64,000 nt of DNA from Eledone cirrhosa (taxonomy: Eukaryota): positions 71,610,001 to 71,674,000 of the forward strand of contig OZ024743.1 in the NCBI GenBank assembly GCA_964016885.1, read 5' to 3'. Under the pieces are notes generated by a model. That model saw only the letters and a list, made by a program, of their open reading frames with translations. It had not been told where the DNA came from and searched no databases. Position numbers and translations under genes: made by a program. How positions within the stretch are numbered: position 1 is the first letter of the stretch; every line of letters starts with the position of its first letter. Shown here one piece after another: positions 4,769 to 64,000 of this stretch.

Positions 4769-4843
<75 letters not shown>

Positions 4844-5057
4844 TATATATATATATATACTATATATATATATGTATGTATATATAGTATACATACATAT
4901 ATATAGTATACATACACATATATATATACTATATATATATATATATGTATGTATATATAGTATACATACATATATATATAGTATACATACACATACATAC
5001 ATACATATATATAGTATACATACATATATATAGTTTACATACATATACAGTATATAT

Positions 5058-5155
<98 letters not shown>

Positions 5156-5313
5156 ATACTTTGGGAGGGTCATGTTGCCAATAAGAAACACACGCACCAG
5201 TTGCTTTCACTTCAATTTATTATATATTTATAAATTTATAAATTTACAAATCTACAAACTTATAAATTTCTGGTTGGTTGGTTGGTTCCACAACCAGATA
5301 GTTGTTTATATAT

Positions 5314-5358
5314 AGTCATAGTCCTTTCGTCACACACTCTGTGATCTCTTCAGTGACT
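5314..5358 (-). ncRNA. Minimal type I hammerhead motif (left-arm copy)
   Basis: Reverse complement of 5476-5520 with one stem II substitution. Confidence 0.7.
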
Positions 5359-5475
5359 GGGGATTCCTTTCTTTGTTTCTGTGCCTTTCCTTTCTTCTGT
5401 CCTACGCCATTTTGTTTCTCAAAATGGCGTAGGACAGAAGAAAGGAAAGGCACAGAAACAAAGAAAGGAATCCCC

Positions 5476-5520
5476 AGTCACTGAAGAGGTCACAGAGTGT
5501 GTGACGAAAGGACTATGACT
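5476..5520 (+). ncRNA. Minimal type I hammerhead motif
   Basis: agtca-CTGAAGA-g-gtcaca(gagtg)tgtgac-GAAA-ggac-TA-tgact. Confidence 0.8.
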
Positions 5521-5740
5521 ATATATAAACAACTATCTGGTTGTGGAACCAACCAACCAACCAGAAATTTATAAGTTTGTAGATTTGTAAATTTATAAAT
5601 TTATAAATATATAATAAATTGAAGTGAAAGCAACTGGTGCGTGTGTTTCTTATTGGCAACATGACCCTCCCAAAGTATAACAATATCGGTTTCAACACAC
5701 GATTTCAGATAAAAAATCTTGCTAAACAAATTCAGAAACG

Positions 5741-5775
<35 letters not shown>

Positions 5776-6720
5776 TACTACATAATCATTTTTATAAAGG
5801 TGTATGTAATGCCAGCCCAGTCCTGGGACCGACTCTGCCTCTATATCCCTTCTCCACTTTTTCTTTCTTACTCTCTTTCTCTGGAAGAAATCAATTCTCC
5901 ATATTAAAAATTGCTTTTCGTCACAACTCTTACTTCACTTATTAATCAGAAAGTATTTTATCTGAAAAAATATTTATAATTTGAAAGAACTTTTCTTCGA
6001 ATAACCTTTCATAAAGATATTCTTACACTTAGTTACATCACCACTTTATTGTTTCTGTGGTTTTTACTTATCGACTTTGCGCAATTAAGAGGTAAAAAAT
6101 AAGTTTATTTAGAATACTTAGCTCCTGGACTAAATTATTTATTGACTATCCTCTACTGTATTCTGATCTTTCACATACGTCAAATACAATAACGTATGTT
6201 TCAATCTCAATAGATTCCATCCGTAAATTTCATTTAGATAATATAATTTTTAATAATACTGTGTATTGTTAGACATATCCTAAAGTAGTTAATGTTTTAG
6301 TCTAGTTATTACTTAATTATTATTTCTGGTGTTGTATATGTACAACTAAATTTAGTTCACTTTAAAATGAAACGTGTATAGAAATTATACTTAAAATAAC
6401 TCAATATTAACATATGAAACTATTTTCTCAGTCCACGGTAAAAACATCTAAATGTAAGGACTTTGTTTTAATATATAAACTATACACATCGAACCCACAT
6501 ACATACAGTGTTTGCCGACACGTATTTTAATATGTATCCTCTTCACAATATTTCACTCATCTTATATATTGAATAGAACCTTAATTCAGTCGTTCCTACA
6601 TTTTAGCTTTTGTCCTTCATCGATATTTCCACTCTAACCATTATATCTTATATGCTCAGTCTTCAATGTATTTTATATGTGAAATTTGGCGAAACATTGT
6701 ATTGTTTGCCACGTTACACA

Positions 6721-6801
<81 letters not shown>

Positions 6802-6984
6802 ACACATATATATATATGGAGTCTGTGATGTTTAGACAAGGGAGATCACTAATTTTTTTTAGTAGTAAATGAAAGGCTTGTTGAACACACAAGCCGAAAC
6901 CACTTGGTACCGCGGTCGGGATTTTACATTTCTCTCTCTCTCCCTCACACATACACAAACATATACACCCTCATACACACAAGC

Positions 6985-7015
<31 letters not shown>

Positions 7016-7795
7016 ATACGCATATGCACACATACAGTAGTGCATTCACACAAGGACGTAGCAGGTGCTATCATGAAAGTTTATTGATGTCAACATAAAG
7101 TTATATTAATGCGCACCATTCTTTCATATTATAACCACACCCAGTACGTTGATCAGTAGTGTGTGTTAAATATAGCTCTCGCCCGCTATTCAGAATTGAA
7201 AGCATATTAAAATAAAGGAATCCCTAGCAACATTTAGGTTTAGGGTAATTTAGAAGCCACCAGCCAGATGATGAATCATAATGCTCATTTTCATTTATTG
7301 ATCGTCTGCCATGTTGCGTATTTCGTTCTTTGTTAAATATGGTTTCCACCCATGAGGCATATAATCAATGCTATAGTCCTTGGTAAACTAAATATCTTTT
7401 GTGTATAGCAAATTACAGGTTTTGAAAAATTAGCAGCATTATTATGGCATTTATAATCTTCAGGCCCTTTTATTAACGCACTTGAGAAGTGAAGATGTCC
7501 AATACTGTATTCTATTTGACAAGTGAGAAATAATTTGTATATTTCAAAATTTATTTAGTGTTGCTTTAAGGGAATATATGAATTAAAACCAGAAACCATT
7601 TACTGCACATCAGGAAAATCTGACATCACTATTATATGTACAATATTTTCATATTCAAAATCTATCACATAGTACTCTGAACAGTGGTTTCACGAAGTAA
7701 CCAACATTCTAGAGTAGGAATGAGTTATTTATCTACATTGCATACAGATGTTCTAAAGGAAAGATTAGTTCTTATCCAGGCGACAACAAAATATT

Positions 7796-8615: not shown

Positions 8616-10074
8616 CAGTAAAAGAGGTTTAATTTAACGAAGTGTAACTAAATACGAGTATTTTATCCGACGCTCTAACACTTCCACCAACCGTAGTGGA
8701 ATAACTATTTCAGTTAACGTCATTTAGTTAAATATTGACTTATTAATTGTCCCAATGCCATAGATGAGTGGTAGGTGAGTGGTTATAAAATTAAATAATT
8801 AAATCTACCATAATATTTCTGCTGACATATCAACAATGTAGGGTTAAATGATATTTGAAATAAATTCAATTTAAGGGGAAATTTGATACTATGAATTATT
8901 CCATTCGGTGATTTACAATTTCTGCCATTCTTACATTTGAATTTATCTATATACTTAGACTTATTTGCACTAAGTGGTGAAATGGCAGAGTCGTTAAAGT
9001 TTAAGAAAAATGCCTTTCGAACTTTGTTCCAACGGATTCTACAAGGTAGATTATCAGTCCAGCGTAGTGTACTGAAGGAATTGTTAGAGCTTTTAAGGAG
9101 ATGTTTTGCGATCATTTCTCAGGCTCATGTGTGATATGAACTTTTGGGTAGTAGACTTAACTTAACCCATCACCAGGTTTAACACCATTTGGTACTTGGA
9201 TGCACGTCTTTTCTTTATCCGACATGGTCCTATAGAATAGACTGTGTGAATTCATGTCACATGGTGTCACCTAGGAAGCAAGGTCATCTCAATTACAACA
9301 AATCACTAAATGTATTTGTTGTGCTAATTACAAAATCAGAATTTCCGAGGGACCTGGTGGTTACAAGGTGTACGCATCTACAAGTAATGTTATTCTGGAT
9401 CTCGCGATACGAACCATCTTTTTGGACCCAGAAAATAAATCTGTGGTTCTGGATATGACCAGCATTGAAGACCACGCATTCAGACCTATGGAACCGAATG
9501 CTTAGACTGGGAGAGGTTGGTTAGATTTCCAGAGGCGTCTAAAAGGCACTCGAGGAGTATCTTACTATTTAGTGCTAGTGGGAGTCTGGAATGGCACCGG
9601 AGAAGAGTGGAAATTAAAAAAACCCTCCAAACTCACGTAGATGTTTCTAACTATCTGATAGATACCGATTAAAGTTCCCGAATATACCAATGACTTATCT
9701 GCATATATGACCTCCCAGATATAAATATAAATAAACCTCAAAACAAAAAAGGAAATCCACACCAACACACATGTGAGAACTTACCATAGAGATTGTGTTA
9801 GAACAGACCACGATACTGCTCGCCAGACACACAGAGTGCAACGTAACGCACAGAAAGATACTATGAAGAACTACTTCTGTAAAACGGGACAAATTGCGTT
9901 CAACATTCTTAGGAGAGTCTTATGGTGTGATCAACTATCTGTTTTATCTTCAGCAACCTCCTATCTTCTCAGTCTCTCTTAAACTCCCATTCTAGTTTGT
10001 CCTTCTCAATTAGCATATAATCATTATATACGGAGTTTGTATATCTCGGTCATAAACTATCATCAAACAACAAT

Positions 10075-20892: not shown

Positions 20893-20967
20893 TTCTTCCA
20901 TCTTTCTTGCTCAAAATTTAGTGGTATGAGAAGATAGCAGCAGCTGTGTTTCGTCAGAGAACAAAGT

Positions 20968-21011
<44 letters not shown>

Positions 21012-21086
21012 ACTTTGTTCTCTGACGAAACACAGCTGCTGCTATCTTCTCATACCACTAAATTTTGAGCAAGAAAGATGGAAGAA
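20893..21086. repeat. Inverted repeat (~78-bp arms) with a (TA)n tract as apex
   Basis: ttcttccatctttcttgc...caaagttg (TA)n caactttg...gcaagaaagatggaagaa. Confidence 0.9.
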
Positions 21087-23230: not shown

Positions 23231-24022
23231 CAGTGACATGTCTATGTGGTGCTTTTCCATGTTATTGCCGTGCGTTAATGTTGTTGCTCAACCAGGTGGG
23301 AGCTATGTATACGGGATAACAAGTTATCGTTGTAGGTAATCCACTTAGAGGTAGTCCAGTTAGAGTACTCCGTGTTGTGGATGGTTTTAACGTATGGCTT
23401 AGTTTGACTCAACAAGACACTTCCATAGTGATGCAGCGAGTTCGCGGTGATTTCTATGTAGGTTATACTTGGAGTAATAATAATTCAAGAAAGAAGGGTA
23501 ACACGGTTGGCTGTACAATAAGGGTTTTATTCACAGTGCTGACAATTGTTTCGTTGATCTGGTAGGTCTAGTTTTAATTATTCACTATCTAGATATTTTG
23601 TTACTGATGTTATTGTTCTGGTTAAACACCACTCTCCTATAAAAGCGTATTATCCTCATATCCACGCGCTCTGATGTATTGACTGGTTGTAAACAAAGTA
23701 TTGGAGTCGATTGACGCAACATCAAGCGATTAGCGAGCTCTAGACCTACCAGATCAACGAAACAATTGTACAGCCAACCATGTTACCCGTCTTTCTTGAA
23801 TTATTATTACTCCAAGTATAACCTACATAGAATCACCGCGAACTCGCTGCATCACTATGGAAGTGTCTTGCTGAGTCAAACTAAGCCAAACGTTAAAACC
23901 ATCCACAACACGGAGTACTCTAACTGGACTACCTCTAAGTGGATTACCTACAACGATAACTTGTTATCCCGTATACATAGCTCCCACCTGGTTGAGCAAC
24001 AACATTAACGCACGGCAATAAC

Positions 24023-26362
24023 ATGGAAAAGCACCACATAGACATGTCACTGAAAAACATACCTGTACCTACAAATAAGGACTATACACTTGGCATGATA
24101 CATCGGACTAATGATTTCCTTCACCAAATCCGATGGAAAGCTTACCACTACGACAAAGGATCCGCTAATAACACGGAGGAATTTACTAAAGATAATTACG
24201 GATTCAAATCCTGTAAAAACCCACCAAATAACCCCATGCTCGATGCCTTCGAGCTTGATCTTATGAACATGATAATTAGAACTAAATTCAAAAAGCAGAC
24301 ACGTCACAACAAATTACAAAACGACATCAATTCACTACTAAAACAACCAAGAAGCACTAACGGTATCATAGTAAAAGCAGACAAAACATCAAACGTATAT
24401 ACCATGAACCTTAATACATACAACAATTTCATACGACGTGAACTGCATAAAAAATACAAAAAAAAACAACTGAATCTACACTCACTAGCATTAATAAGGA
24501 AGGAGTAAGCATAGTAAAAAAACTGAAAATATCCGATAGAACCGAGCCTCTAACCCCATGTAGCCCCACATTTAACCTTAAGGATCACAAAAATAATTTT
24601 GAAACAAACCCTGTAATTAGATTAATATGCCCATCCAAGTCGGATATCGTAAAATTAGCAAATACCTTCTAGATAGAGTAATCGCACAAATTAAGGGAAA
24701 ACTAGTAATCAACTTATGGGGAAACACTAACGAAGCAATAGAATGATTCAGTAAAATAAGAAACAGAGAAACATACAACTTCATACAATTCGACATTAAT
24801 GATTGCTACGCCTCCATTCCTCCAGTCACCCTAGATAAGGCGCTAATCTTACCGCAGATGAAATTAAAATAATACTAGCTGCTAGAAGGACTATCATAAA
24901 ATTCGAAAATAGCTACTGGGAAAGAACAATAGGAAGAATAGCTTCGACATCACAATGGGATCGAACGACTCAGCCCACATAACCGACGTTGTGGGGATAT
25001 TTATAGCACACAACTTACATAAAGAATTCAGTAACCTCCAAGGAAGAATTTATAGAGATGATACGCTCCTTATAGCTAAAAACTTAAATAACCAGAACAT
25101 GGAAAGATTACGAAAAAACATTAGAACATTCTTCAAAAAACTAGGCCTTAATTTTAAAAAAGCAAATTTTATAGATGTAACTCTTAACCTAAACACAGGA
25201 TTAATAGAACCCTTCCATAAAAATAATGAAAATCTAGCCTATATTAGTTACAACTCAAACCACCCCCGATCCATAATTAACTCCATAGCACGTAGTATAT
25301 CCCTCAGAATATCCCGCCCTTCCTCAAACCTGGAATTTTAAATGAACATGCTAATTATTATAACGCAGGATTACATAAGGCTGGACACAAAGAAAAGCTG
25401 CAGTTTATAACAGATAGGGACAACATCAACAAACCCGATAACACCAACACTACCCGCTCATACAAAAATAAAAGACACAGGACTAGGCATAGAACTAGAC
25501 AACTAGCACCGAGAGTAGGAGAACAGAGCACTAACAATAGAAACCCCCCAAACTATAGAAGAACTAGAGAAAGAAAATACATATGGTTCAATCCGATCTT
25601 CAACTCCTCTATAAGAACTAAACTACCTTCTACGTTTTTAAAACTAATAGATAAGCACTTCCCTACATCGCATAGATACCATAACATCTTCAATAGAAAA
25701 AGTATAAAACTTTCATACTCAACTGCAGCCAACATAGAAACGCACATACATAAGAACTACCACAAACATATCTCTAAGGACATAGCACCACATACAAGCA
25801 CCACATACAAAACACAAACACATAACAGTATCACAACCACAAACGCATCTGAACATACCACAGCAAAAATTCAACAGGCATGAATCGCAACCCACACATT
25901 ACAACTTACAAAACCGCAATGTGAAAGCTGCATAGAATAATACCTCAAACTGCAATTGTCACCTATCAGATAAGTGCCCAGTAGAGAATAGGTGCCTAGA
26001 GTCTAGCTTAGTATACATGTGTACTGTAAACTCGGGCAACTCCACCTGGCAATACATAGGATCCACTGCGGGTGATTTTAAAAAGAGGTGGTATGTCCAC
26101 AGACATTCAATGAGGAACCGCGCACTGGTGAATTCTACAAACCTCGCCAATAAAATCTGGCAACTTAAGGACAAAAACCTAGATTACAAAATTAGCGGCC
26201 GCAAAGGCCTATAGCAGCGGTATGTCTCATTGCAGGCTCTGCAACCTTGAATTGCTACATATCTTAAGGTACGATAAAATGCAACTTAACAGCAAAATAG
26301 AAAGGTCAATTTTCTGCAGACATAGGATTGATACTAAATTTACGAGATTTAAACCACCGTGA
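24023..26362 (+). pseudogene. Frameshifted PLE polyprotein: reverse transcriptase plus C-terminal GIY-YIG endonuclease
   Basis: SLKNIP, RWKA, YGFKS, VKADKT, LKDHK, RLICPSKSDI, FIQFDINDCYASI, FDITMGS, YRDD, FIDVTLNL, SNHP, WFNP, CNC..CP..C, LVY..YIGST..FKKR..H, CRLC..E, LN..E..CRH; several frameshifts and a W-to-TGA stop near 24744. Confidence 0.92.
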
Positions 26363-27405
26363 TTCGAACCAGCATCCTCAAGATTAATGGAAAACCACTT
26401 AGACTTTAACGTATGAAATCCGCATTCTCACACGGCCTATTTCAGAACCATAAAATTCTATAAATACCTTCCAGCCTCCCTACATCTATATCACCAAGAT
26501 CGGACGGGAATATCTACAAATATTTACCAATTATCTTGTCAACCCATAAATCAATCTTGTCTTTGCTGTTGTTTATTCTTTCGGACTATGCAATTGTATC
26601 TACATATCTCATATTAGCACCCATGATCTCTAACAGATGAACTTAATTCTAAGTACATTATCTTATTACTCTTACACTCCTTTGAAACTCTTATTTTCCT
26701 CTTATTATTATTATTATCATCTCAATGTACCCTATCCCTCAATTTATTCATCATGTTCTCTATCTATTTACCATGCATGTTTTATTGTTGATGTTATTGT
26801 CTTAATTATACACTATTTTGTAATTGATGTTGCGAAAACTAAACCCCCATGATTCGAACTAGCAATCCCAAAATTTAGAATAACATACTAAATCCACAAT
26901 TTCACTTAATACCAGATACCAATGAACCATAAATCTCTATACACTCCCTCCATCAATCTCACTAAGTTGATACAACAGGAGAAAATACCTAACACAAGTG
27001 CTTATCTGTCAAACCATAAATCAATCTCCGTTTTATTGTTGGTAGGGTGTCAGACCCACAGCTCACTTGTATCTAATTCTCTCATAATTGCACTTAAAGT
27101 GTAGATTCCAAAATCTGATTCTAAGTACATTTTATTATTTTATTATTTATCCCTTCATCTAAGTTAATTCATCCCTTGACTACTACCTCTAATGTACCCT
27201 ATGGTAGATTTCGCATGTCACTTCATACATCTGTATCATATCTGTTTGTTTACCATGCTTGTTTTATCATTATATTCTATTTCTTACTTGTATTGATGTT
27301 ATTGTTTTAATTATTCACTATCTAGATATTTTGTTACTGATGTTATTGTTCTGGTCTAACACCACTCTTCTATAAAAGCCATGCCTTGCGTATTATCCTC
27401 ATATA

Positions 27406-27523
27406 CACGCGCTCTGATGTATTGACTGGTTATAAACAAAGTATTGGAGATCGATTGACGCAACATCAAGCGATTAGCGAGCTCTGGACCTACCAGATCA
27501 ACGAAACAATTGTCAGCACTGTG
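27406..27523 (+). ncRNA. Variant hammerhead in 3' pLTR (CTGATGT core, large loop 2)
   Basis: cacgcgct-CTGATGt-a-ttgactggt(~60 nt)accagatcaa-c-GAAA-caattg-TC-agcactgtg; palindromic helix III and GUC triplet. Confidence 0.6.
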
Positions 27524-27653
27524 AATAAAGCCCTTATTGTACAGTCAACCATGTTACCCCTCTTTCTTGAATTATATATTAATATATATATATCCGCATG
27601 TGGTTGACGGCTGAGAGAAAGGAATACTTATTACCGAAGTAGGAATTTAAAAT

Positions 27654-28127: not shown

Positions 28128-28481
28128 AAATTAAAAGATATATATTTATATATAGAGAGAAACACAGAATGTTGTATATATATCTAATATATATTCTATA
28201 GAAGAATATGTACACAGATGGAATCATAAGTGAAACCTTATAGCACTATTTCATACCTAGAGAGTATGGCTAAAAATCGAACTTTCGGGGATCGATTACA
28301 TAGATCGATCTTTAGCAATCCACTGTATTTATGAAATAGCGCTATAAGGTTTCACTTATGATGCCATCCGTGTACATATTCTTCTATAGAACATGTATTT
28401 AGTATATATATACAATATACCATGTTTCTTTTACGATATATGGCTCTTGCTCTATATATATAAACATACATCTTTTAATTT
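28128..28481. mobile_element. Old imperfect fold-back element containing a hammerhead 3' half
   Basis: ~130-150-bp diverged arms; GAAA-tagcgcta-TA at 28333 (palindromic helix III). Confidence 0.65.
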
Positions 28482-36200: not shown

Positions 36201-36389
36201 ATGTAAAATATGTAGTTTAGAAAGCCACAACAATGCAGATGGGAAATTTCGAGGTAGGAAGTGAGTGAGAAATAGGAGAAAAGTGAAAATTGAGAGAAAC
36301 GTTTCTCTCAATTTTCACTTTTCTCCTATTTCTCACTCACTTCCTACCTCGAGATTTCCCATCTGCATTGTTGTGGCTTTCTAAACTAC

Positions 36390-36400
<11 letters not shown>
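36201..36400. repeat. Loop-less palindrome (100-bp arms) centred on GAAAC|GTTTC
   Basis: 36201-36300 is the reverse complement of 36301-36400 (about 2 mismatches); tail cccatctgcattgttg recurs at about 57410. Confidence 0.92.
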
Positions 36401-38022: not shown

Positions 38023-38520
38023 TGATATAATGTTTACAATTATTATGATTATTATTATCATTGTCATAATGATTATTGTTATTATTACTATTATTTTATT
38101 ATTAATTGTTTCTACTTTTGGCACAAGGCCAGCAATTATCCCAGTGTATTACTGGTACTTTATTTTATCGACCCCGTAAGGATGAAAGGCAAAGTTAACC
38201 TCGGCGGGATTTGAACTCAGAATGGCAAAGGACGTAACTCTTTGCTGCAAAGCATGGCGTCCGACCCTCTACCGATACTGCCAATCCATCGCCATTATTT
38301 TATTATTATGGTGGATTGGCAGTATCGGTATAGGGTTTGACGCCATGCTTTGACGCAGAGGTACGGCCCTTGCCATTCTGATTTTAAATCCCGCCGAGGT
38401 TAACTTTGCCTTTCATCCTTATGGGGTCGATAAAATAAAGTACCAGTCACGAACTGGGATCGATTTAATTGACTTTCCCCTCCCCCAAATTGTTGGCCTT
38501 GTGCCTATATCAGAAACCAT
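37075..38520. mobile_element. Cluster of five dominant-SINE copies interleaved with (TAT)n tracts
   Basis: Copies at about 37075-37190 (+), 37433-37620 (+), 37700-37940 (+), 38103-38293 (-), 38308-38520 (+). Confidence 0.85.
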
Positions 38521-41809: not shown

Positions 41810-41858
41810 TTGCCTGATGAGGTCACAGCCAATAATCGCTGTCACTGAAATATAGCAG
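41810..41858 (+). ncRNA. Minimal type I hammerhead motif
   Basis: ttgc-CTGATGA-ggtcacagc(caataatc)gctgtcact-GAAA-ta-TA-gcag; relative at 56190-56245. Confidence 0.75.
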
Positions 41859-42247: not shown

Positions 42248-43505
42248 CTATAGTGGATGATATACTATATTAGATCGTAAACTATAGTGGATCATAAACT
42301 ATAGTGGATCATAAACTATAGTGGATCATATACTATAGTGGATCATAAACTATAGTGGATCATATACTATAGTGGATCATATACTATAGTGGATCATATA
42401 CTATAGTGGATCATATACTATAGTGGAACATATACTATAGTGGATCATAAACTATAGTGGATCATATACTATAGTGGATCATATACTATAGTGGATCATA
42501 TACTATAGTGGATCATATACTATAGTGGAACATATACTATAGTGGATCATAAACTATAGTGGATCATATACTATACTGGATCATATACTATAGTGGATCA
42601 TAAACTATAGTGGATCATATACTATAGTGGATCATATACTATAGTGGATCATATACTATAGTGGATCATATACTATAGTGGAACATATACTATAGTGGAT
42701 CATAAACTATAGTGGATCATATACTATAGTGGATCATAAACTATAGTGGATCATATACTATAGTGGATCATAAACTATAGTGGATCATAAACTATAGTGG
42801 AACATAAACTATAGTGGATCATATACTATAGTGGATCATATACTATAGTGGATAATATACTATAGTGGAACATAAACTATAGCGGATCATAAACTATAGT
42901 GGATCATATACTATAGTGGATCATAAACTATAGTGGATCATATACTATAGTGGATCATAAACTATAGTGGATCATATACTATAGTGGATCATATACTATA
43001 GTGGATCATATACTATAGTGGATCATAAACTATAGTGGATCATAAACTATAGTGGATCATATACTATGGTGGATCATAAACTATAGTGGATAATAAACTA
43101 TAGTGGATCATATACTATGGTGAATCATAAATTATAGTGGATCATAAACTATAGTGGATCATATACTATAGTGGATCATAAACTATAGTAGATCATATAC
43201 TATAGTGGATGATAAACTATAGTAGATGATAAACTATAGTAGATGATAAACTATAGTAGATGATGAACTATAGTAGATCATAAACTATAGTAGATCATAA
43301 ACTATAGTAGATCATACACTATAGTAGATGATAAACTATAGTAGATGATAAACTATAGTAGATGATAAACTATAGTGGATCATAAACTATAATATATCAT
43401 AAACTAAAATAGATCATAAACTATCGTAGATCATATACTATAGTGAACCATAAACTATAGTAGATGATAAACTATAGTAGATGATAAACTATCTTAGATC
43501 ATACA
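42248..43505. repeat. 17-bp minisatellite (ctatagtggatcata[t/a]a), about 74 units
   Basis: Period 17 (42282, 42299, ...); head-to-tail with no spacers. Confidence 0.97.
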
Positions 43506-44981
43506 CTGTCTACAAAATATATGAACTGTTCACTTCTCTCTTCATGTTTTATGGTTTGAAAAGTATAAGATGTCTCAAAGTTTAGTAGTTGCAATAATTC
43601 CATTCCTGAAATAGAAATTTGTGAGTTTAATTTTCTGTTCGTCTCACATTTCCTAGCAACTAATGACGAACAAAGATTTAAACAATTCCAATATATTTTC
43701 AAACAAAAGACGAAACAGTTCCCTTTCTATCTCTATCTCTCTCCCCACACACATAGTAAGCGTAAGGAAAAAAGAACATTCACTAAATACATAACTGGTT
43801 AATATTTCGAAGATGAAAAAATAAATACAACTTTTCATTAAATAGCAGATTTATTCAATAGCTAACCGTCCCAAAGTGATATTTAATTGTGTATACAATG
43901 TTATATACACCTACATTTAAAACAATACCCCTGACAGAGTGTTAATTAAATCCATTGAAACAATTTCACAAACCAGCATACACTAGAATATACATTATGT
44001 AATTTGGAAAATTTGAAAATTATAACAACGTATTAGAGTAATAATTATCATTTAATTCATTGTTTAATAAATAATGACATATTTGTCAATATCAACGTAT
44101 TGAATGACTTATACTATATTCAATAAAAGATGCATGTTTACATTTCAAAACTTAAATATATATGCAAACACAAATGATTCATATGAAATAGAACTGAATG
44201 CGCCGATATAATATGTAATTGAATAAAATGGAAAATATAAGAGTGATTAATTATGGTTGTTACAGGATAATTAAACTACGTCACTGGACATTTCCTAATC
44301 ACAACTGTAGATGAATTTGCCTTAAGTTTTAAAATCTACATATTATGCCTGTATTAACATTCACGTGGATAATTTTCATATTTATTCACAAGTTTGAGTC
44401 TCACACGCATGTTCGTTTATCACGATGAATGTCTGTTATGCGTTAGTCTACCCATCAAATGTTCAGTAAACGGCAATTAATTTGCTACGCTGTCCCTATC
44501 ACACACCTTTTTTTTTTATCAGAAGTCCATTTTGATTTAAAAGAACAGTTTTACTTTTCATTAAATGAATCCATATACAAATATTACATACATTTTGGCA
44601 CACCGTAAGTATGTAATCTGTGGCGCAAGTACATTGGCAACCAAGGTAGTAGCTGCGGATACATTTTCATATTTTCATATCTTCAGCGCACATTTAAATC
44701 TAAGAAGATATTATGTCCCAAATGTCAGCAATGGGGAATAGGATACTGTGTGTTGACGATATATAAAATCATGGAAATACTTTCAGTGTTTTTACTCTGG
44801 AAACTAAAGTATTTGCAATATATAATGTGGAAAGTGATGTATCTAAGAAGGCTAAAACAATGTAAAATGGACGGTAAGATGAAGGCAACAAATTAGTTAC
44901 CTGGTAAGCTTTGTTTGTTTTTGTAGTTTTTTATACTTCTTTATTATATGTAAACCTAATCTATATACTCTATACATGCCA

Positions 44982-52869: not shown

Positions 52870-54041
52870 GATTCACTTCTGGAATTTCATGTATCTTTTT
52901 GGGTCCGATTGGATTAGGAGCTCCATCCGGACGAGTTCTCCTGCTTTACTTTTATCACCTCAATTACTTTAGTGTCGGCCTCGATGTCGGCGAGGACGGC
53001 AGCCATTAGCCAGGGAATTTCAATGGCCGGCGGAACCTTGGTCACCCTGATCCTTACCAGCCTCTGACCACAATAGCTTGAGACGAGTGTGAACTCGTCA
53101 CTTTTTAATGGGGGCCATGGATTGCTCTCTGGCTTCCTGTGGGGTTTTAAAGAACATGTCCACGGTTCCATATTTTTGCCCACGTCTGATGTGGGTTTTT
53201 TGAGTACACACATGTGCGAAAGCTTTTTGTATCTGGGATCCGTTCCACTCGGCGCGTTTTAATATGTATCGTCCGATTTGACACGGTGCATAGGCGCCGA
53301 TGCTCTATGGTATTAGATGGGGGTAGGTGGGGTGGGGGGGACTCTGACCCTGTAGCCATGTTTTTTTACCATTCGCTTGGCTTTATTCAATTCTTCCTGG
53401 CTTGCCTCAACCGTTTCGTTTTTGTTTGCCGGTTCAGCAAACGACACATTTAGTTTTGCGCTGGTTTTGATATTGTTGTTGTTATTCTTATTGTTGCTGT
53501 TATTGTTATTGTTATTTTAGTTATTATTTTTCGTTTCAGTTGTGGTGATGGTAGTGGTGTCAGTGGCATTCGGCGTGGAAGAGTCGATTTTCGGAGAATC
53601 CATTTCGATATCACGAGAAAATAATTTATTTTTTGTTTCAGTTGTTGCTGGGGTGGTGGTATCAGTGGTGTTGGTTGTTCTTTTTGACATTGTGGTGGTG
53701 TGGATGGCGGCTTTAACACCTGTAGACATTAGTAATGGCGGGAAATACACGTATGTATGTGACAAATCTAAATAATTGCCATTGCTATTACTTATATTTT
53801 CAGTGTTGGCATTATTTTCTATTGTCTGTATTTTGGTTGTCGCTGTTATTGTTGTAGTTGGTGTGGTAATTTTTTTAAAATTGGTGTTCTCAGTGTTGTT
53901 GTCTTTGTTCACGTTGTTTGTGGTGGTGTTTGTTGTATGTATTTCTGTAACCCTCCTCTCAACTTTTACACCATTGTCACACGACAGAAGACATATGGTG
54001 TGTGTGTGGGGTGGGGGTGGGGGCGTACGTGGCTCAGCCAT
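52870..54041 (-). pseudogene. Disrupted ORF, possibly a LINE ORF1 (gag/RRM-like) with a T/N-rich low-complexity N-terminus
   Basis: Higher-GC coding-like block split over frames; RRGQKYGTVDMFFKTPQEA and SYCGQRLVRIRVTKVPPAIEIPWLMAAVL resemble L1/Tx1-type ORF1; no ORF2 seen. Confidence 0.4.
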
Positions 54042-54679
54042 GTTTTGTTTAATTTAAAAAAGTAAAATGTTCAAATGTTCAAATATTAATCGAATATTTG
54101 GGCCAAAAGGCCCAAATATTATACTGTCCCCTTCACAGGGCAAAGTCCAAGGGTTTACATCCCTTACACAACAAGAAAATTTAAACAACAAATAATTATA
54201 GCAGGTAAATAAAGCGACTTACTATGAGCGAGCAAAAAGACGTCCGAACAGACCAATAATAATTGTTTCTACTTTTTGGCACAAGGCCAGTAATTATCAG
54301 TGCATTGCTGGTACTTTATTTTATCGACCCCGTAAGGATGAAAGGCAATAATTACGTACGTGGCTCAGCCATGTTTTTTTTTTATTTAAAAAAGTAAAAT
54401 GTTCAAATATTAATCGAATATTTGGGCCAAAAGGCCCAAATATTATACTGTCCCCTTCACAGGGCAAAGTCCAAGGGTTTACATCCCTTACACAACAAGA
54501 AAATTTAAACAACAAATAATTATAGCAGATAAATAAAGCGACTTACTATGAGCGAGCAAAAAGACGTCCGAACAGACCAATAATAATTGTTTCTACTTTT
54601 TGGCACAAGGCCAGTAATTATCAGTGCATTACTGGTACTTTATTTTATCGACCCCGTAAGGATGAAAGGCAATAATTAT
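54024..54679. repeat. Recent ~330-bp tandem duplication (each unit ends in a SINE fragment)
   Basis: Units 54024-54354 and 54355-54679 nearly identical. Confidence 0.92.
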
Positions 54680-54693
54680 AATAATAAAGGAAA

Positions 54694-54964
54694 TATATAA
54701 CTTTATAACATCACTATTTATTTCATTATATATATTTCGGTGATGCAAAAAATTAATGTTTAACATAAATCAGAGCATACATTCTTCAAACAAAATACAT
54801 ATGAGATGTAAAAAATGTTTGATGATATACAAACAAGAATCAAACAATTTATAGATCTCATATATATTTTGTCTGAAGAAGGCATGTTCTGATTTATGTT
54901 AAACACACAGTTTTGCATCCGAAATATATATAATGAAATAAATAGTGATGTTATAAAGTTATAT
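54694..54964. mobile_element. Fold-back PLE-like mini-element with hammerhead in both arms
   Basis: atataactttataacatcactatttatttc... / ...gaaataaatagtgatgttataaagttatat; left-arm core mutated to TTGAAGA. Confidence 0.75.
54865..54940 (+). ncRNA. Type I hammerhead motif with extended stem-loop II
   Basis: tattttgt-CTGAAGA-aggcatg...gcatcc-GAAA-tatata-TA-atgaaata. Confidence 0.7.
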
Positions 54965-56013
54965 CTTTTGTTTATTACTATTATTATCATAATCCTCCAG
55001 ATAAGTATTAACTGTGGAGTGTTTCGTATCTGTTATAAACATAACTCAGTTGATTATATCAACGAAGTCTTTAACTCATTGTTTATATAAATATATCATA
55101 TCCACTGATATGGATTCTGAACACATGCACGCGCTTAGGTCACCTTAAGGTCAACTGCAAGAATCGGTGATAAGTTACCAAAAAGTGTGATGGTCAATGA
55201 CCTGGAAGTCATGAGATTACCATGTGATTAGTCCGAAGAATAAAATCCAAATCGTATGTTGACGAATATTCGTACTCCAGGCATGTTAATTGTAACATGC
55301 CGCATTTGAGAGTAGAGTTTATGTTGTCGATATTTCGATGTGTCAGATCGTGGGAAGATTAACACAAATTAAGATGTAACTTCTCCTCCATTATTAACAA
55401 GAAACCATTATTAACATTCGCAACAGTGAACGTTACAAGGCCCTCTTTAAGGCTAACACTTCTGCTTGTTTATCCGAATTGTTATGGTGTTTTCTCAGGT
55501 TATGTCTACTATAGGGGGAAACGGGAGGGTTTTATTGAATTGCTTCAGTCATTCGAAAGGCTTTACAAACGGTGATTCACTCAGTTATAATTTCTTCAAT
55601 AATTGCGATGACTTCAATTTTATATCTTGAGCGCTAAGGCAGTAAGTTTATACATATAGTTTGCTATTCTTATACATAAGTTTGTTGAATAAGTTCGATA
55701 TTCTCCAAGCTCAAACTTCCCCGGTTTATTTACTCTGAATGAAGAAAGCTGGATGGAAGAAGGACTTATGACTTAAACAGCTATTGATAGTTCCACACAA
55801 AGGAATCACCCCCCCCCCCTCCCGAGCAATCAAGCAGTTTTCTATATGTATACACACAAAACCTAGTTGCAATATAACATCGAACAACCAATATTAAACA
55901 AATGTCTAACATTTAAACTTACGCAGGAAGCAGGTCAGCCAAACTACGAGTATAAGTACACAGTTTATATATATATATATATATATATATGCATATATAT
56001 ATGTATATATATG

Positions 56014-56130
<117 letters not shown>

Positions 56131-56189
56131 CAAGGCTCTGATACCATCAACACTATAAACACAGAGCTGGCATATCTAAGAACTGACTA

Positions 56190-56245
56190 ACTCCCTGATG
56201 AGGTCGTAGCCATTCAATGGCTATCATCGAAATATATATAGCAGT
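56190..56245 (+). ncRNA. Minimal type I hammerhead motif
   Basis: actcc-CTGATGA-ggtcgtagcc(attcaat)ggctatcatc-GAAA-tatata-TA-gcagt; stem II differs from 41810 copy yet pairs. Confidence 0.7.
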
Positions 56246-56286
56246 AAATAAAGGATTATGAGTTCATGGAATTTATTTATATTTCG

Positions 56287-56340
<54 letters not shown>

Positions 56341-56930: not shown

Positions 56931-57298
56931 GGTGAAATGGCAGTATCGGTAGAGTGTCGGACGCCATGCTTTCCAGCATAGTTACGTCCCTTTACGGTCT
57001 GAGTTCAAATCCCGTCGAGGTTAACTTTGCCGGGTCGATAAAATAAAGTACCAGTAATGAACTGAGTAATTGCTGGCCTTGTGGCAAACGTAGAAACAAT
57101 TATTGAGGGCGGTGGATTGGCAGTATCGGTAGAGGTCGGACGCCATGCTTTGCAGCAAAGAGTTACGGCCTTTTATGGTCTGAGTTCAAATCCCGCCGAG
57201 GTTAACTTTGCCTTTCATCCTTACGGGGTCGATAAAATAAAGTACCAGTAATACACTGGGATAATTGCTGGCCTTGTGCTAAAAGTAGAAACAATTAT
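56931..57298 (+). mobile_element. Two tandem dominant-SINE copies (second full length, 57108-57298)
   Basis: ggcggtggattggcagtatcggtag A-box, gagttcaaatcc B-box, central domain, tail agtagaaacaattatt. Confidence 0.92.
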
Positions 57299-57449
57299 TT
57301 TTATTTTTTACGCTCTTTCCTACATTCCTCTACACACTATACATCTCATTATAAATTTCCCCTCACATCTCTCTCTCTCTCCACCACCGGATCTTGTTAC
57401 CCGGAGATTTACCCATCTGCATTGTTGAGGCTTCAAAAACGACCAAAAG

Positions 57450-57509
<60 letters not shown>

Positions 57510-57510
<1 letters not shown>

Positions 57511-58669
57511 GATAAATCTACCAAGAGTTTACGGTAGTGTCCAATCCGTATGAAGAACTCAATGTATTCCGGATATCATGGAAAGAAGAGATGTAATGAA
57601 AATCCACTTTCGGTGAAAGATAAACGGTATACAGAGTCAAGATAAAATATTAAACAAATAATGAATAAACAATTCCTTATATTAAACAAAAAAAGTTCAT
57701 TATTTAACGATCGTTTCTAGGGTATATATGTGTTATAATTGGTATGCATATTCAACAGATCTATGTACAAAATTATACAAAATTATACAAATTATCAAGA
57801 TTAAATATACATACCTAACACATATATACGCCGTCTTCAGAAATAATGAAGTATATTTATTGATAATAACAACAATTCAAAATATCAGTTCAAAATTGAC
57901 CAATGAAAACACAAAGGGTTAAAAGCAGTTCGGTGTGTGTATATACATGTAAAATCCTTACACATATTTTACAATAATGTGTGTATAAATTGTATGCGCA
58001 TACTAAAAAGATGGATGCAAACACAAAATTTCAAGGTTAATATCTCTGTAAGCTTAATGCGCTGATAAGATGCGCATTGATACTTATGGAGTCAAGCATA
58101 TAAATATATTTTTTCATACTCACACATATCAGTATAATCACACATACATGCGCGTATATGCATAAACATACACATAACCACGAACATACAAACACACACA
58201 CTCCCCCGCTCACATTTATATATGTGGATATAAAATCATAAGCACATAGAAATTAAGTCACTCACATAAAACACTGGCACACACATTTCAAGATCAAGAT
58301 ACAGAAATTAGGTGGGAGGGGGGGGAGGGGTCAGTATTCAATTGTCTGAGCAGACTGCCTAATATAAATGTATCTATAAATTAAGAAAAATAAAAAAATA
58401 AAAACAATAAAATATAATAAATATAATATAATGTACAAACACATACAGATATATATACACATACATACATGTACGCGCACATAGAGATATTAGCGCATAC
58501 ACACATACACACATACATATACAGTCATACACACACATACACTTACACGAACATACACATACACATATAAAAAGATATATATATACACACACACACGCGC
58601 AACACATACACACATACACATATATATAAAAAATAGATAATAAAGATATATATCCATATATATATATAT

Positions 58670-58720
<51 letters not shown>

Positions 58721-58809
58721 TATACATATACATACACATACATCTAAATATACATACACATACATACACACATACATGTACATACATGTACATACATATA
58801 CGCACATCG

Positions 58810-58853
<44 letters not shown>

Positions 58854-59189
58854 TCACATAGACATATAGATACATACACACACAACTTACATACACACGT
58901 ATATATATATATATATAGATGTACCTTCATACATAGAATTAGATATATAATCATACATACATATGCACCTACTTATACTCATATAAATAAATACATACGC
59001 TTCCATATATGTGTATATACATAAAAAAAATATACAACCTCACCAAACTCAGACATACAAATAAAAATAATAATAAAAAATAATAATAAAAAGGCATATG
59101 TATATACATACACACACGCATTAATAGAGATATATATATATACACACACACACATACACATACATATATACATACACACACATATATAT

Positions 59190-59248
<59 letters not shown>

Positions 59249-59254
59249 TAGACT

Positions 59255-59286
<32 letters not shown>

Positions 59287-59379
59287 AACATATATATCCA
59301 CACACTCATATCACCATAAATACACATACAAACACCCACATGTATATATATATATATATCTACATACACACACGTATAC

Positions 59380-59414
<35 letters not shown>

Positions 59415-59721
59415 CACACACATAAAAAACAGACATGCACATATATATATATATATATATTTTATTACTCTTATATATACACATATTATATATACATACA
59501 CAACCTCACTTATACACATATACACATAAGTTATATTATAATAATAATAAAGAATAATATACATATATATATATACATATACATACATATATATATATAT
59601 ATATACATACATACATACACATACATACATACACATAAATATATACATACATAAATACACACATACGAATAAAGACATATATTCACACATAGACACCTAT
59701 ATATATATATATATATATATC

Positions 59722-59769
<48 letters not shown>

Positions 59770-60921
59770 CACACACACACACACACACAGACACACATAC
59801 ACACTCACATATATATATATATATATGTGTATGTGTGTGTGCGCACATACACATATATACACACACACACACAAACACACACAAACACATACATATGCAT
59901 ACGTGCACACACACACACATATATCACATAGATACGAAGATAAACATATAAATAGAGAGACATACATATATATACACAACACACATACACATACATACAT
60001 ACACGCATATACATATACATACATATATACACATATATATATTCCTATATATACAAGCATACACATACATACACATATATACACATACATACACATATAC
60101 ATACAGCACATTCACATACACATACATATATAATGCATATATATACATATATATACATACATATGTATGTACAATCATATATACACACACAATCTTACAT
60201 TCATATTTGCATGCTCATATATGTATTTTTATATTTAGATATAAATACCCAAACCTATATAGACACCTACCTACATATATATTCATACATAGACTCTTAC
60301 AAATACAGATGATAATAGTATGGGGGAAAGGGGGGGTTTGGAGAAGGGGATCAAAGTAAATATATGTTTCAAGAAACATATAATATTTTCCGTATCTTAA
60401 TTCAATGTATGTTCTTACATATTTTCAGTGCTAGGAAATACGAAATCTATGCATCTCAAAATAAATAAGTATACCATTAATCATATGTTAACTAAACCAA
60501 AGATAGTCAACATATTGATTTCTAAGGTGTAAATTAGTTAGGTTTATAATATTTGAAGCAGAATTTTGAAGTCAAACATTAGTAGATTATTAATTACATT
60601 ATAACTAAATTAAAGTTAATAACGTTATGGTATCAATATTAGGAGATGAATTTAGTAATAGGGAAAAGAAACCCAAATAAAAATAAAATAAAGTATTACA
60701 TCGGTAGTAGCATATAAATTATATGTTAACTAAATTAAAAATTATATATTTATTTCAATAGTATACGTTAATTAGTATATGTTAATTAGGTATACAATAC
60801 ATAAAGCAGATATTGTATTTCATCAATAGCATAATATAATTATATGCAAATAGAAATCAAAATTAATACGCATACATATACATATACATACACATACACA
60901 TATACATACATATACACACAC

Positions 60922-60952
<31 letters not shown>

Positions 60953-61769
60953 CATATATACACATATATACATACATACAGATACACATACACAACACAC
61001 ACATATACATACACATATACATATACATATCTTTTTCAAAAAATTTGCACAGAATATATTAACTAGGTATATATCCAAAACACATCCCATTCTATGATTA
61101 CATGACATTCTGCAATTCGTCTGTATAAGGATACTAATTTTAAGCAAATTAAAATTAAAGTTTTAGGTTGATTAAAACTAAAACCAAATAATAAATATAT
61201 TTCCAAAATGTATATTAATTAGGTCTATAATACTAAAAATTCTTTCTCCGTCATTGGATACATGATATTATTTTGTTATATTTTATCTGTAAAAGAATTA
61301 TAATAAAAGGTTTAAATAAATTAAAATTAATCTATAAATTAAATTACTAAGTATATATTAGTAATATTTAAAGGTTTTTCACAATTTATGATTACATAAT
61401 ATTTTCTCATCTGTAATAAAACATTAATTAAATTAAATTTATAGGTTAACTAACATTTAAATTAAATTAATTTCTAGAATAATGTTATTAATTAGGTTTA
61501 TAATATTTAAATGTTTTTTTTAGTTTATGATTACACGATATAATTAATTCCTGTCGTTTATTTAATAAGATATCCCTAGACTTCATTATTTCAAATAGTT
61601 CTTGGGAACATAATCTACATTCCTTTCTATTATTTTGATAAGGGGTGGCTCTTTTGAGCACACTCCAGGTCAAATCATATTTTATATTCTTATTTTTATA
61701 ACTATTGATTTTTTCTGCTAGAGATGTTGTATTAGCCAGTGCGGCATTTTTAAAACTATGTTTGTGGGT
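57510..61769 (-). mobile_element. 5'-truncated Naiad-type PLE: GIY-YIG C-terminus, ~4-kb microsatellite-rich 3' region, hammerhead, ending at (TA)n
   Basis: EN C-terminal ORF 61769 to 61488; hammerhead at 57850-57696 in the same orientation; left boundary inferred from (TA)n at 57451-57507. Confidence 0.7.
57696..57850 (-). ncRNA. Type I hammerhead with 10-bp stem I and very long stem II
   Basis: ttcattattt-CTGAAGA-cggc-gtatatatgtgtta-ggtatgtatatt(~50 nt)aatatgcatacc-aatta-taacacatatatac-ccta-GAAA-cgatcg-TT-aaataatgaa. Confidence 0.8.
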
Positions 61770-62737
61770 GAAAGGATGTAACTGTAGAAACAAAACAAAC
61801 TGCCCATTAAAAGGGAATTGTCTTGTTAACAACATAGTCTATAAATGTAATGTTAAAACTAAAGATTCTATTTGCTCATATATAGGAGCTACCTCTAACA
61901 ATTTTAAGACAAGGTTTAATACCCACAAACATAGTTTTAAAAATGCCGCACTGGCTAATACAACATCTCTAGCAGAAAAAATCAATAGTTATAAAAATAA
62001 GAATATAAAATATGATTTGACCTGGAGTGTGCTCAAAAGAGCCACCCCTTATCAAAATAATAGAAAGGAATGTAGATTATGTTCCCAAGAACTATTTGAA
62101 ATAATGAAGTCTAGGGATATCTTATTAAATAAACGACAGGAATTAATTATATCGTGTAATCATAAACTAAAAAAAACATTTAAATATTATAAACCTAATT
62201 AATAACATTATTCTAGAAATTAATTTAATTTAAATGTTAGTTAACCTATAAATTTAATTTAATTAATGTTTTATTACAGATGAGAAAATATTATGTAATC
62301 ATAAATTGTGAAAAACCTTTAAATATTACTAATATATACTTAGTAATTTAATTTATAGATTAATTTTAATTTATTTAAACCTTTTATTATAATTCTTTTA
62401 CAGATAAAATATAACAAAATAATATCATGTATCCAATGACGGAGAAAGAATTTTTAGTATTATAGACCTAATTAATATACATTTTGGAAATATATTTATT
62501 ATTTGGTTTTAGTTTTAATCAACCTAAAACTTTAATTTTAATTTGCTTAAAATTAGTATCCTTATACAGACGAATTGCAGAATGTCATGTAATCATAGAA
62601 TGGGATGTGTTTTGGATATATACCTAGTTAATATATTCTGTGCAAATTTTTTGAAAAAGATATGTATATGTATATGTGTATGTATATGTGTGTGTTGTGT
62701 ATGTGTATCTGTATGTATGTATATATGTGTATATATG

Positions 62738-62768
<31 letters not shown>

Positions 62769-63921
62769 GTGTGTGTATATGTATGTATATGTGTATGTGT
62801 ATGTATATGTATATGTATGCGTATTAATTTTGATTTCTATTTGCATATAATTATATTATGCTATTGATGAAATACAATATCTGCTTTATGTATTGTATAC
62901 CTAATTAACATATACTAATTAACGTATACTATTGAAATAAATATATAATTTTTAATTTAGTTAACATATAATTTATATGCTACTACCGATGTAATACTTT
63001 ATTTTATTTTTATTTGGGTTTCTTTTCCCTATTACTAAATTCATCTCCTAATATTGATACCATAACGTTATTAACTTTAATTTAGTTATAATGTAATTAA
63101 TAATCTACTAATGTTTGACTTCAAAATTCTGCTTCAAATATTATAAACCTAACTAATTTACACCTTAGAAATCAATATGTTGACTATCTTTGGTTTAGTT
63201 AACATATGATTAATGGTATACTTATTTATTTTGAGATGCATAGATTTCGTATTTCCTAGCACTGAAAATATGTAAGAACATACATTGAATTAAGATACGG
63301 AAAATATTATATGTTTCTTGAAACATATATTTACTTTGATCCCCTTCTCCAAACCCCCCCCTTTCCCCCATACTATTATCATCTGTATTTGTAAGAGTCT
63401 ATGTATGAATATATATGTAGGTAGGTGTCTATATAGGTTTGGGTATTTATATCTAAATATAAAAATACATATATGAGCATGCAAATATGAATGTAAGATT
63501 GTGTGTGTATATATGATTGTACATACATATGTATGTATATATATGTATATATATGCATTATATATGTATGTGTATGTGAATGTGCTGTATGTATATGTGT
63601 ATGTATGTGTATATATGTGTATGTATGTGTATGCTTGTATATATAGGAATATATATATGTGTATATATGTATGTATATGTATATGCGTGTATGTATGTAT
63701 GTGTATGTGTGTTGTGTATATATATGTATGTCTCTCTATTTATATGTTTATCTTCGTATCTATGTGATATATGTGTGTGTGTGTGCACGTATGCATATGT
63801 ATGTGTTTGTGTGTGTTTGTGTGTGTGTGTGTATATATGTGTATGTGCGCACACACACATACACATATATATATATATATATGTGAGTGTGTATGTGTGT
63901 CTGTGTGTGTGTGTGTGTGTG

Positions 63922-63969
<48 letters not shown>

Positions 63970-64000
63970 GATATATATATATATATATATATAGGTGTCT
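59691..64000. repeat. Inverted repeat with arms of at least 2.08 kb and a 151-bp spacer (runs off window end)
   Basis: 59691-61769 is the reverse complement of 61921-64000; only a 1-bp G/C-run length difference noticed; mirrored ORFs in the track. Confidence 0.95.
61770..62202 (+). mobile_element. Uninterrupted GIY-YIG endonuclease domain of a 5'-truncated Naiad-type PLE
   Basis: GCNCRNKTNCPLKGNCLVNNIVYKC..YIGATSNNFKTRFNTHKHSF..CRLCSQE..LLNKRQELIISCNH; homologous to 25950-26362; ORF start in the track is an artefact of the inversion junction. Confidence 0.92.

Follow-up and report, generated by a model that had tools for sequence, protein, structure and literature searches.

This locus raises the question of whether a compound microsatellite that lies between the endonuclease gene of a retroelement and a hammerhead ribozyme on the same strand is part of the element and travels with it. 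Composition and repeat motifs point to an octopus as the probable host, in line with the stated source. Within the window, by which is meant the whole stretch of 64,000 nucleotides from Eledone cirrhosa analysed here, the endonuclease stop codon of an open reading frame on the minus strand ends at 61488, and 3,638 bases (57850-61487) separate it from the hammerhead, in agreement with the ~3.6 kb first proposed. The reading that we favour, with somewhat better than even confidence, is that of a single element in which the 4 kb running from the stop codon, through 1.8 kb of microsatellite and a predicted hammerhead, to a (TA)n flank constitute a 3' region common to the family.

Architecture of the locus and clade of the endonuclease

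Judged by its sequence, the locus consists of two 5'-truncated copies of a Penelope-like retrotransposon, arranged back to back, whose endonuclease is of Hydra type. The left arm encodes the C-terminal part of a GIY-YIG endonuclease on the minus strand (61488..61769, an open reading frame truncated at its 5' side), and at the outer end of the element stands a (TA)28 run (57451..57507, no strand assigned), the likely insertion target; the (TA)n targeting that had been suggested is thus borne out at the one visible element end. On the plus strand, the right arm carries an endonuclease segment with a CxCX5C linker that is truncated at 61770 (61770..62202, from motifs and loose contig ends), followed by a mirror copy of the 3' region that runs off the window (62203..64000, from arm comparison). 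Over 2,079 bases the arms (59691-61769 and 61921-64000) differ by no substitution and by one 1-base indel in a G run. The earlier statement that 59691-61487 recurs base for base in the opposite arm therefore stands, give or take this indel, although within the window the mirrored part takes in no more than ~490 bases of the large tract along with the small tract of 159 bases, or ~650 of 1,828 microsatellite bases. The 151-base spacer between the arms is the first 151 bases of the right-arm endonuclease, and the minus copy accordingly begins 151 bases further into the gene than the plus copy.

Read on the plus strand from 61771, the endonuclease has the order CNCRNKTNC...IVY...YIG...CRLC...LLNKR...CNH and then a stop, and is 41-52% identical to the C-termini of six proteins with reverse-transcriptase motifs, two of which (P0005 and P0006) also contain RWK and DKT motifs. 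The Pfam GIY-YIG match is weak (E 0.0094, below the cut-off). The CxCX5C linker is present as CNCRNKTNC, with its second and third Cys invariant in 7/7 sequences and its first in 6/7, and the CxxC and CxH motifs around a conserved E and N (CRLC, E, LLNKR, CNH) are likewise invariant in 7/7. No CxxC lies between IVY and YIG, so that the CCHH motif is absent; two Cys nine residues apart in this interval are not conserved in the six homologues. An animal non-LTR retrozyme, by definition a set of non-coding tandem repeats with a type I hammerhead in each, was ruled out, as there is one hammerhead, no tandem unit and an attached coding remnant. Penelope/Poseidon, Neptune, Nematis and Naiad were also ruled out by the missing CCHH motif, which their endonucleases possess, the last three together with CX2-5CxxC (Craig 2021; PMC8557442). 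In the same paper, a CxCX5C linker, the lack of CCHH, and CxxC and CxH around E and N define the Hydra clade. The original prediction of a Penelope-like element thus gains a clade: as judged by its endonuclease, the reverse transcriptase being absent from both truncated copies, the element is a member of Hydra. No close full-length protein of its family was found, the best match being 63% identical over a 161-residue fragment.

Head-to-head truncated copies are a standard form in the accounts of Craig (2021; PMC8557442) and Arkhipova (2013; PMC3846280), and a route can be proposed for the present pair. The endonuclease would nick a (TA)n run, and reverse transcription would begin close to the tail that follows the hammerhead, either at the two cut ends of the target or by folding back; both products would pass through the microsatellite, end within the endonuclease gene at points separated by 151 bases, and then be joined bluntly, the 3' region having been reverse-transcribed with the element. 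An anole Penelope protein, from another clade, is reported to cut and extend both strands from two start sites (Frangieh 2024). Loose contig ends at 61770 in three public runs (X4, X5 and X6) show native upstream sequence, and thus the plus copy is truncated at 61770; the head-to-head junction is blunt, with no microhomology to the native neighbours.

The palindrome might instead have been formed after insertion, through DNA fold-back or arm-to-arm conversion, or been made by the assembly, and the identical microsatellite would then be no evidence of reverse transcription. Such an origin accords with the lack of any substitution or change in repeat length across 2,079 bases, and among the matches listed no contig crosses 61769/61770. 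At 61422 and 61576 the letter of the window has no depth in run X1, yet it is common to both arms, a pattern compatible as well with later conversion or with an assembly that mirrored one arm. The spacer, however, is native endonuclease coding sequence rather than an adapter, the junction is blunt where the native neighbours are seen as loose ends, many diverged mirror pairs occur in the window, and the repeated flanks of the microsatellite would be left unexplained. On balance, we hold a later or artefactual palindrome to be very improbable. Arithmetic from a published substitution rate bounds the age of the reverse-transcribed pair at roughly <0.2 million years, provided that the likeness of the arms is not a product of conversion or assembly.

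More than a dozen short mirror structures with 70-100% identity occur elsewhere in the window, between 27 and 56528, several of them at TA runs; examples are those at 5152-5682 (98.7%), 36206-36395 (98.9%), 20893-21086 (100%), 38138-38460 (86%) and 28148-28441 (81%). Fold-backs therefore exist and age in this genome.

The hammerhead and the composition of the 3' region

A type I hammerhead ribozyme is predicted from its fold on the minus strand at 57696..57850, where a 10-bp stem I, the core CUGAAGA (57840-57834), a 116-nt stem II, GAAAC and a palindromic stem III follow one another, with a predicted cut after GUU at 57706. None of 200 shuffles was as stable (folding z-score -6.7), and Rfam at gathering scores gave no matches in the 64-kb window. 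Among 40 of the 46 contig variant sites none falls in the core, and none of eight sites checked represents a compensatory change in stem II: two keep the pair by G-U, three are unpaired, one is the cleavage base and two break a pair, one of the latter at 0.6% share. The change at the cleavage base leaves GUA, a permitted hammerhead cleavage triplet. A 22-base hammerhead pattern had no matches in viral contigs. Taken together, a candidate hammerhead of canonical type lies near the 3' end, with predicted cleavage and a link to the open reading frame that we infer. A nearer hammerhead was sought on the element strand between the stop codon and 57860, where the exact core CUGANGA does not occur; among five words with one mismatch, visual inspection of that at 60428 revealed no matching stem I. 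Two other sites in the window bear hammerhead-like motifs with folds that are not significant, namely a mirror pair at 54672-54987 (83%) with a core at 54873 on the plus strand, and a 165-base island between two TA runs at 56128-56290 with CUGAUGA...GAAA and a look-alike at 41813-41854.

Behind the hammerhead lies a tail (57510..57695, minus strand), repeated in 4/4 runs and with a folding z-score of -2.6, which is likely the 3' end of the element. Tail and hammerhead belong to a microsatellite-free terminal module of high depth (57510..57873, minus strand) that resembles a pseudo-LTR. One loose contig end of X5, at 57847, reads as the opposite strand of the element itself and suggests short mirror copies folded at stem I.

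Upstream of the terminal module, the 3' region alternates between tandem repeats and anchors. Anchor A, a repeated non-coding segment (57874..58430, minus strand), is followed by the large compound microsatellite (58430..60180, minus strand, from repeat masking), which is rich in UG, UA and UAUG on the element strand and contains 14 perfect (TA)8+ runs. Next come anchor B (60185..60870, minus strand), which is AT-rich, the small compound microsatellite (60872..61030, minus strand, from repeat masking and composition), and the proximal 3' UTR (61031..61487, minus strand, repeated in 4/4 runs). Tandem Repeats Finder, with periods of up to 10, masks 1,828 of the 3,638 bases in 57850-61487, as compared with 14.3% of 1-57509, and a stricter measure of purine/pyrimidine alternation marks 1,336. 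Scrambled (TG/TA/TGTA)n is thus abundant as had been described, with the earlier figure of ~2 kb slightly high. Two further tandem structures stand elsewhere in the window: a minisatellite with a 17-base unit at 42248-43507 (74 copies, 92% matches), and a 324-base tandem duplication at 54024-54678 (96%) containing a dispersed repeat also present at 57032-57302.

Part of this region appears to derive from the end of the open reading frame. The proximal UTR consists of decayed tandem copies (~170 bases) of that end, with 77% identity over 87 and 70% over 127 bases; the unit scores 56 there, which none of 200 shuffles reaches. Anchor B likewise contains a decayed copy (score 40, reached by 1/200 shuffles and 0/332 window tiles). 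Since this relic lies beyond the small tract, the small tract is internal to the element on sequence grounds. The large tract, anchor A and the tail contain no ORF-end relic above chance, and neither anchor A nor the large tract has any sequence in common with the endonuclease side, the scores being reached by 149 and 164 of 200 shuffles. A derivation of the unique islands in the large tract from anchor B, as decayed duplicates, was considered and rejected: 8, 4 and 1 words are shared, where shuffles reach up to 9, 8 and 6. Sequence look-ups with anchor B, with tail plus anchor A, and with endonuclease plus UTR returned no look-alike windows. Both tracts nevertheless have one strand polarity, with C against G on the plus strand at 334 to 72 in the large tract and 33 to 1 in the small tract, and short seeds in anchor A share it. 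The UTR may have originated by tandem duplication of the ORF end together with slippage of CA/TA seeds. The case for the large tract as internal draws on this polarity, on the lack of a nearer exact hammerhead core and on depth.

Copy depth and the membership of the large tract

Contigs from 4 of 24 listed runs (X1, X4, X5 and X6, from two studies; runs of share <0.2 were left out) were placed on 60995-61935 and 57490-58440, the stretches on either side of the two tracts and anchor B. Seven edge bins that touched skipped repeats or ends were dropped before medians were taken, and the depths are summed over contigs, a quantity distinct from copy number. In X1, median depth is 319,621 for the terminal module, 21,531 for anchor A, 27,675 for the proximal UTR and 51,807 for the endonuclease; the corresponding values are 1,556, 132, 24 and 69 in X4, 135, about 66, 43 and 75 in X5, and 15, 7.6, 5.5 and 18 in X6. 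Anchor A, covered in 4/4 runs, thus stands at 0.8-1.6 times the proximal UTR in X1, X5 and X6, which come from three labelled organisms, and at 5.5 times in X4, and in the first three the two depths track together over 3.5 orders of magnitude. The lowest X1 depths, among listed sites picked by the authors, are 4,770-7,071 in anchor A, 7,031-7,426 in the UTR, 8,636-9,480 in the spacer and 63,871-86,135 in the tail. No contig of the four runs spans a tract or the full length of either stretch, and none links both sides of a tract; the agreement in depth is therefore co-variation rather than linkage.

Repeated unique DNA on both sides of the tract, at similar depth in 3/4 runs, favours an element of ~6 kb with internal microsatellite. 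If the element is one, the truncated left arm alone measures 4.26 kb. Hammerheads are reported as universal in Hydra elements (Craig 2021; PMC8557442), and with no exact core before 57860 this too counts for one element, as does the mirrored arm, which runs 1.8 kb past the stop codon without a hammerhead. Equal depth at both ends, with no 5'-truncation slope over 3.6 kb, counts against it. The original prediction held that the microsatellite was copied along with the element. Its membership is likely, given the repeated flanks, and it likely travels with the element, carriage by the whole family being what we infer; the identical arms, by contrast, show duplication at one locus only.

The terminal module behaves differently, being 12-15 times deeper than anchor A in organism A (X1 and X4) and ~2 times deeper in organisms B and C (X5 and X6). 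In X1 depth drops ~15-fold near 57874, a step located ~25 bases upstream of the hammerhead rather than at the predicted cut. This excess would suit an arrangement of two elements, in which an abundant hammerhead element composed of the terminal module and anchor A sits in host microsatellite beside a Hydra-type element that ends inside or before the tract. The lack of homology between the tract sides is in keeping with it, as is the size of all 27 tabulated Hydra families, at most 3,045 bases (PMC8557442). Such an arrangement would, however, leave the endonuclease element without any hammerhead and require a chance match in depth between anchor A and UTR in three runs, and the modest excess in organisms B and C is as for a pseudo-LTR. 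It is therefore distinctly improbable in our estimation.

A single element could also have a large tract particular to the copy in the window or to a small lineage, with host microsatellite captured or grown before the terminal module. In Pen1_Av, spacers of 0.9-1.5 kb are captured host DNA and vary among copies (PMC3846280). Depth is silent on the sequence between the anchors, the window copy has minority letters at many sites, and the test for islands shared between tract and anchor B was not significant, all of which leave room for a copy-specific tract. Anchor A, on the other hand, recurs in three labelled organisms, as a unique spacer would not; two contigs, from organisms B and C, reach 24 and 38 letters past 61040 toward the small tract and stop, presumably on entering the repeat; and both tracts and the anchor A seeds are of one polarity. 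We consider a copy-specific tract rather unlikely.

With a family-wide 3' region as the preferred reading, the depth of the microsatellite-free terminal module in organism A implies that most insertions are likely without cargo. Most would stop after ~350 bases, and the remaining minority, put at roughly 200-1,000 insertions for organism A, would each bring ~1.8 kb of microsatellite. Internal priming in the carried (UA)n was disfavoured as a main route, anchor A being not shallower than the UTR in 3/4 runs.

Feedback, novelty and comparison with known elements

The left arm contains 15 of the 130 perfect (TA)8+ runs of the window, which would supply targets to an element of this preference; no nested hammerhead core was found in these runs. 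The original prediction saw in this a feedback loop helping to explain an extreme simple-repeat load. With a family depth of ~7,000 and an assumed single-copy depth of 7-30, which allow an order of magnitude only, organism A would hold 230-1,000 long copies, or 0.4-1.8 Mb. Set against the 209 Mb of simple repeats in O. vulgaris, a stand-in genome whose simple-repeat class may exclude repeats inside annotated elements, this amounts to 0.2-0.9%, and at that share the family is too small for the role assigned to it. The feedback would be real in kind and small in amount, and the family is likely a minor contributor on present evidence, although other families could add more. A broader scheme, in which each long arm adds 15 (TA)8+ runs in 1.8 kb and uses one, many Hydra-type families do alike, and element-borne microsatellite becomes the main simple-repeat source and a self-feeding niche for hammerhead elements, seems to us quite improbable.

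Both components have been published separately, (TA)n targeting for Hydra (PMC8557442) and carriage of microsatellites for shrimp Penelope (PMC7878876). Neither a Hydra-type element that harbours kilobases of microsatellite nor a Penelope target-cargo loop appeared in the literature searched, in which subscription papers are thinly covered, and Repbase or an O. vulgaris consensus library may already include the family. Should linkage be confirmed, a Hydra-type element of ~6 kb would double the known size range of the clade, and its reverse transcriptase would be able to read through imperfect dinucleotide repeat for kilobases. In repeat libraries an element of this make-up would be scattered over three entries, as an unknown repeat, as simple repeats and as a Penelope fragment, and the microsatellite borne by elements would be undercounted. 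The locus also makes it possible to test, by counting, whether elements that target microsatellites create their own niche.

Among known systems, the Hydra clade shares with this element the C-terminal GIY-YIG endonuclease with a CxCX5C linker, CxxC, CxH and no CxxC inside the core, a type I hammerhead close to the end (predicted in the present case) that in many instances has a GUU site, a (TA)n flank and inverted 5'-truncated copies (PMC8557442). The 27 families tabulated by Craig (2021; PMC8557442) measure 1,080-3,045 bases, 26/27 of them with a (TA)n preference, and the statement that Hydra elements are generally <3 kb is a description and not diagnostic. In Hydra-1_Obim, the stop codon and hammerhead are ~0.1 kb apart by our arithmetic (PMC8557442), whereas here the distance is 3.6 kb, half of it microsatellite, and stem II has 116 nt. 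Recent near-full-length Penelope copies of O. vulgaris average 5.5 kb (1,795,539 bp over 329 insertions), which counts in favour of a single long element.

Relatives in metagenome contigs were scanned for a hammerhead behind the stop codon, taking the best 80 of 263, and one was detected in 34/80, within 367 nt in 33 and at 2,770 in one; 32 of these 34 have no microsatellite before the hammerhead, and two have 32 and 36 bases. Many of these loci are short or from a single family, the scan had no false-positive control, and it missed the long-stem hammerhead of the window itself, so that distant ones are perhaps undercounted and no absence can be read from the 46/80 in which none was detected. 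The locus with the distant hammerhead-like match (L031, 2,770 bases behind the stop), the only such relative, has a seemingly atypical stem III and may reflect chance or another element.

A second, decayed Hydra-type element lies on the plus strand at 23231-27600 (ORF 24047-26363), with an inverted repeat (23231-23519/23765-24052, 98%) and a direct repeat (23571-23809/27304-27581, 83%). From its ORF end, ~1.05 kb without tandem repeat lead to a hammerhead-like variant core, CUGAUGU at 27414, with a long stem II and a fold that is not significant (z -0.8). No likeness was found between its 3' region and that at 57510-61487.

Pen1_Av of Adineta vaga similarly has a long spacer between the ORF and a terminal pseudo-LTR, and head-to-head inverted copies, but its spacers are unique and vary from copy to copy, whereas here the tract has repeated flanks, some of which derive from the end of the ORF (PMC3846280). 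Non-LTR elements likewise seed microsatellites, and Waldo, Mino, Kibi, Koshi and Dong insert into them; those cases are APE-type or poly(A)-derived, in contrast to a GIY-YIG element with kilobases of internal repeat (PMC3812793). The text consulted on the SSR-bearing Penelope elements of penaeid shrimp gives no clade, hammerhead or (TA)n target, and hence no loop of target and cargo (Yuan 2021; PMC7878876). These shrimp elements nonetheless resemble the present one in their internal microsatellite, and their copies, which are recent (>98% identical) and collinear, are proposed as carriers that expand SSRs, with carriage demonstrated between loci there and deduced from repeated flanks here (PMC7878876).
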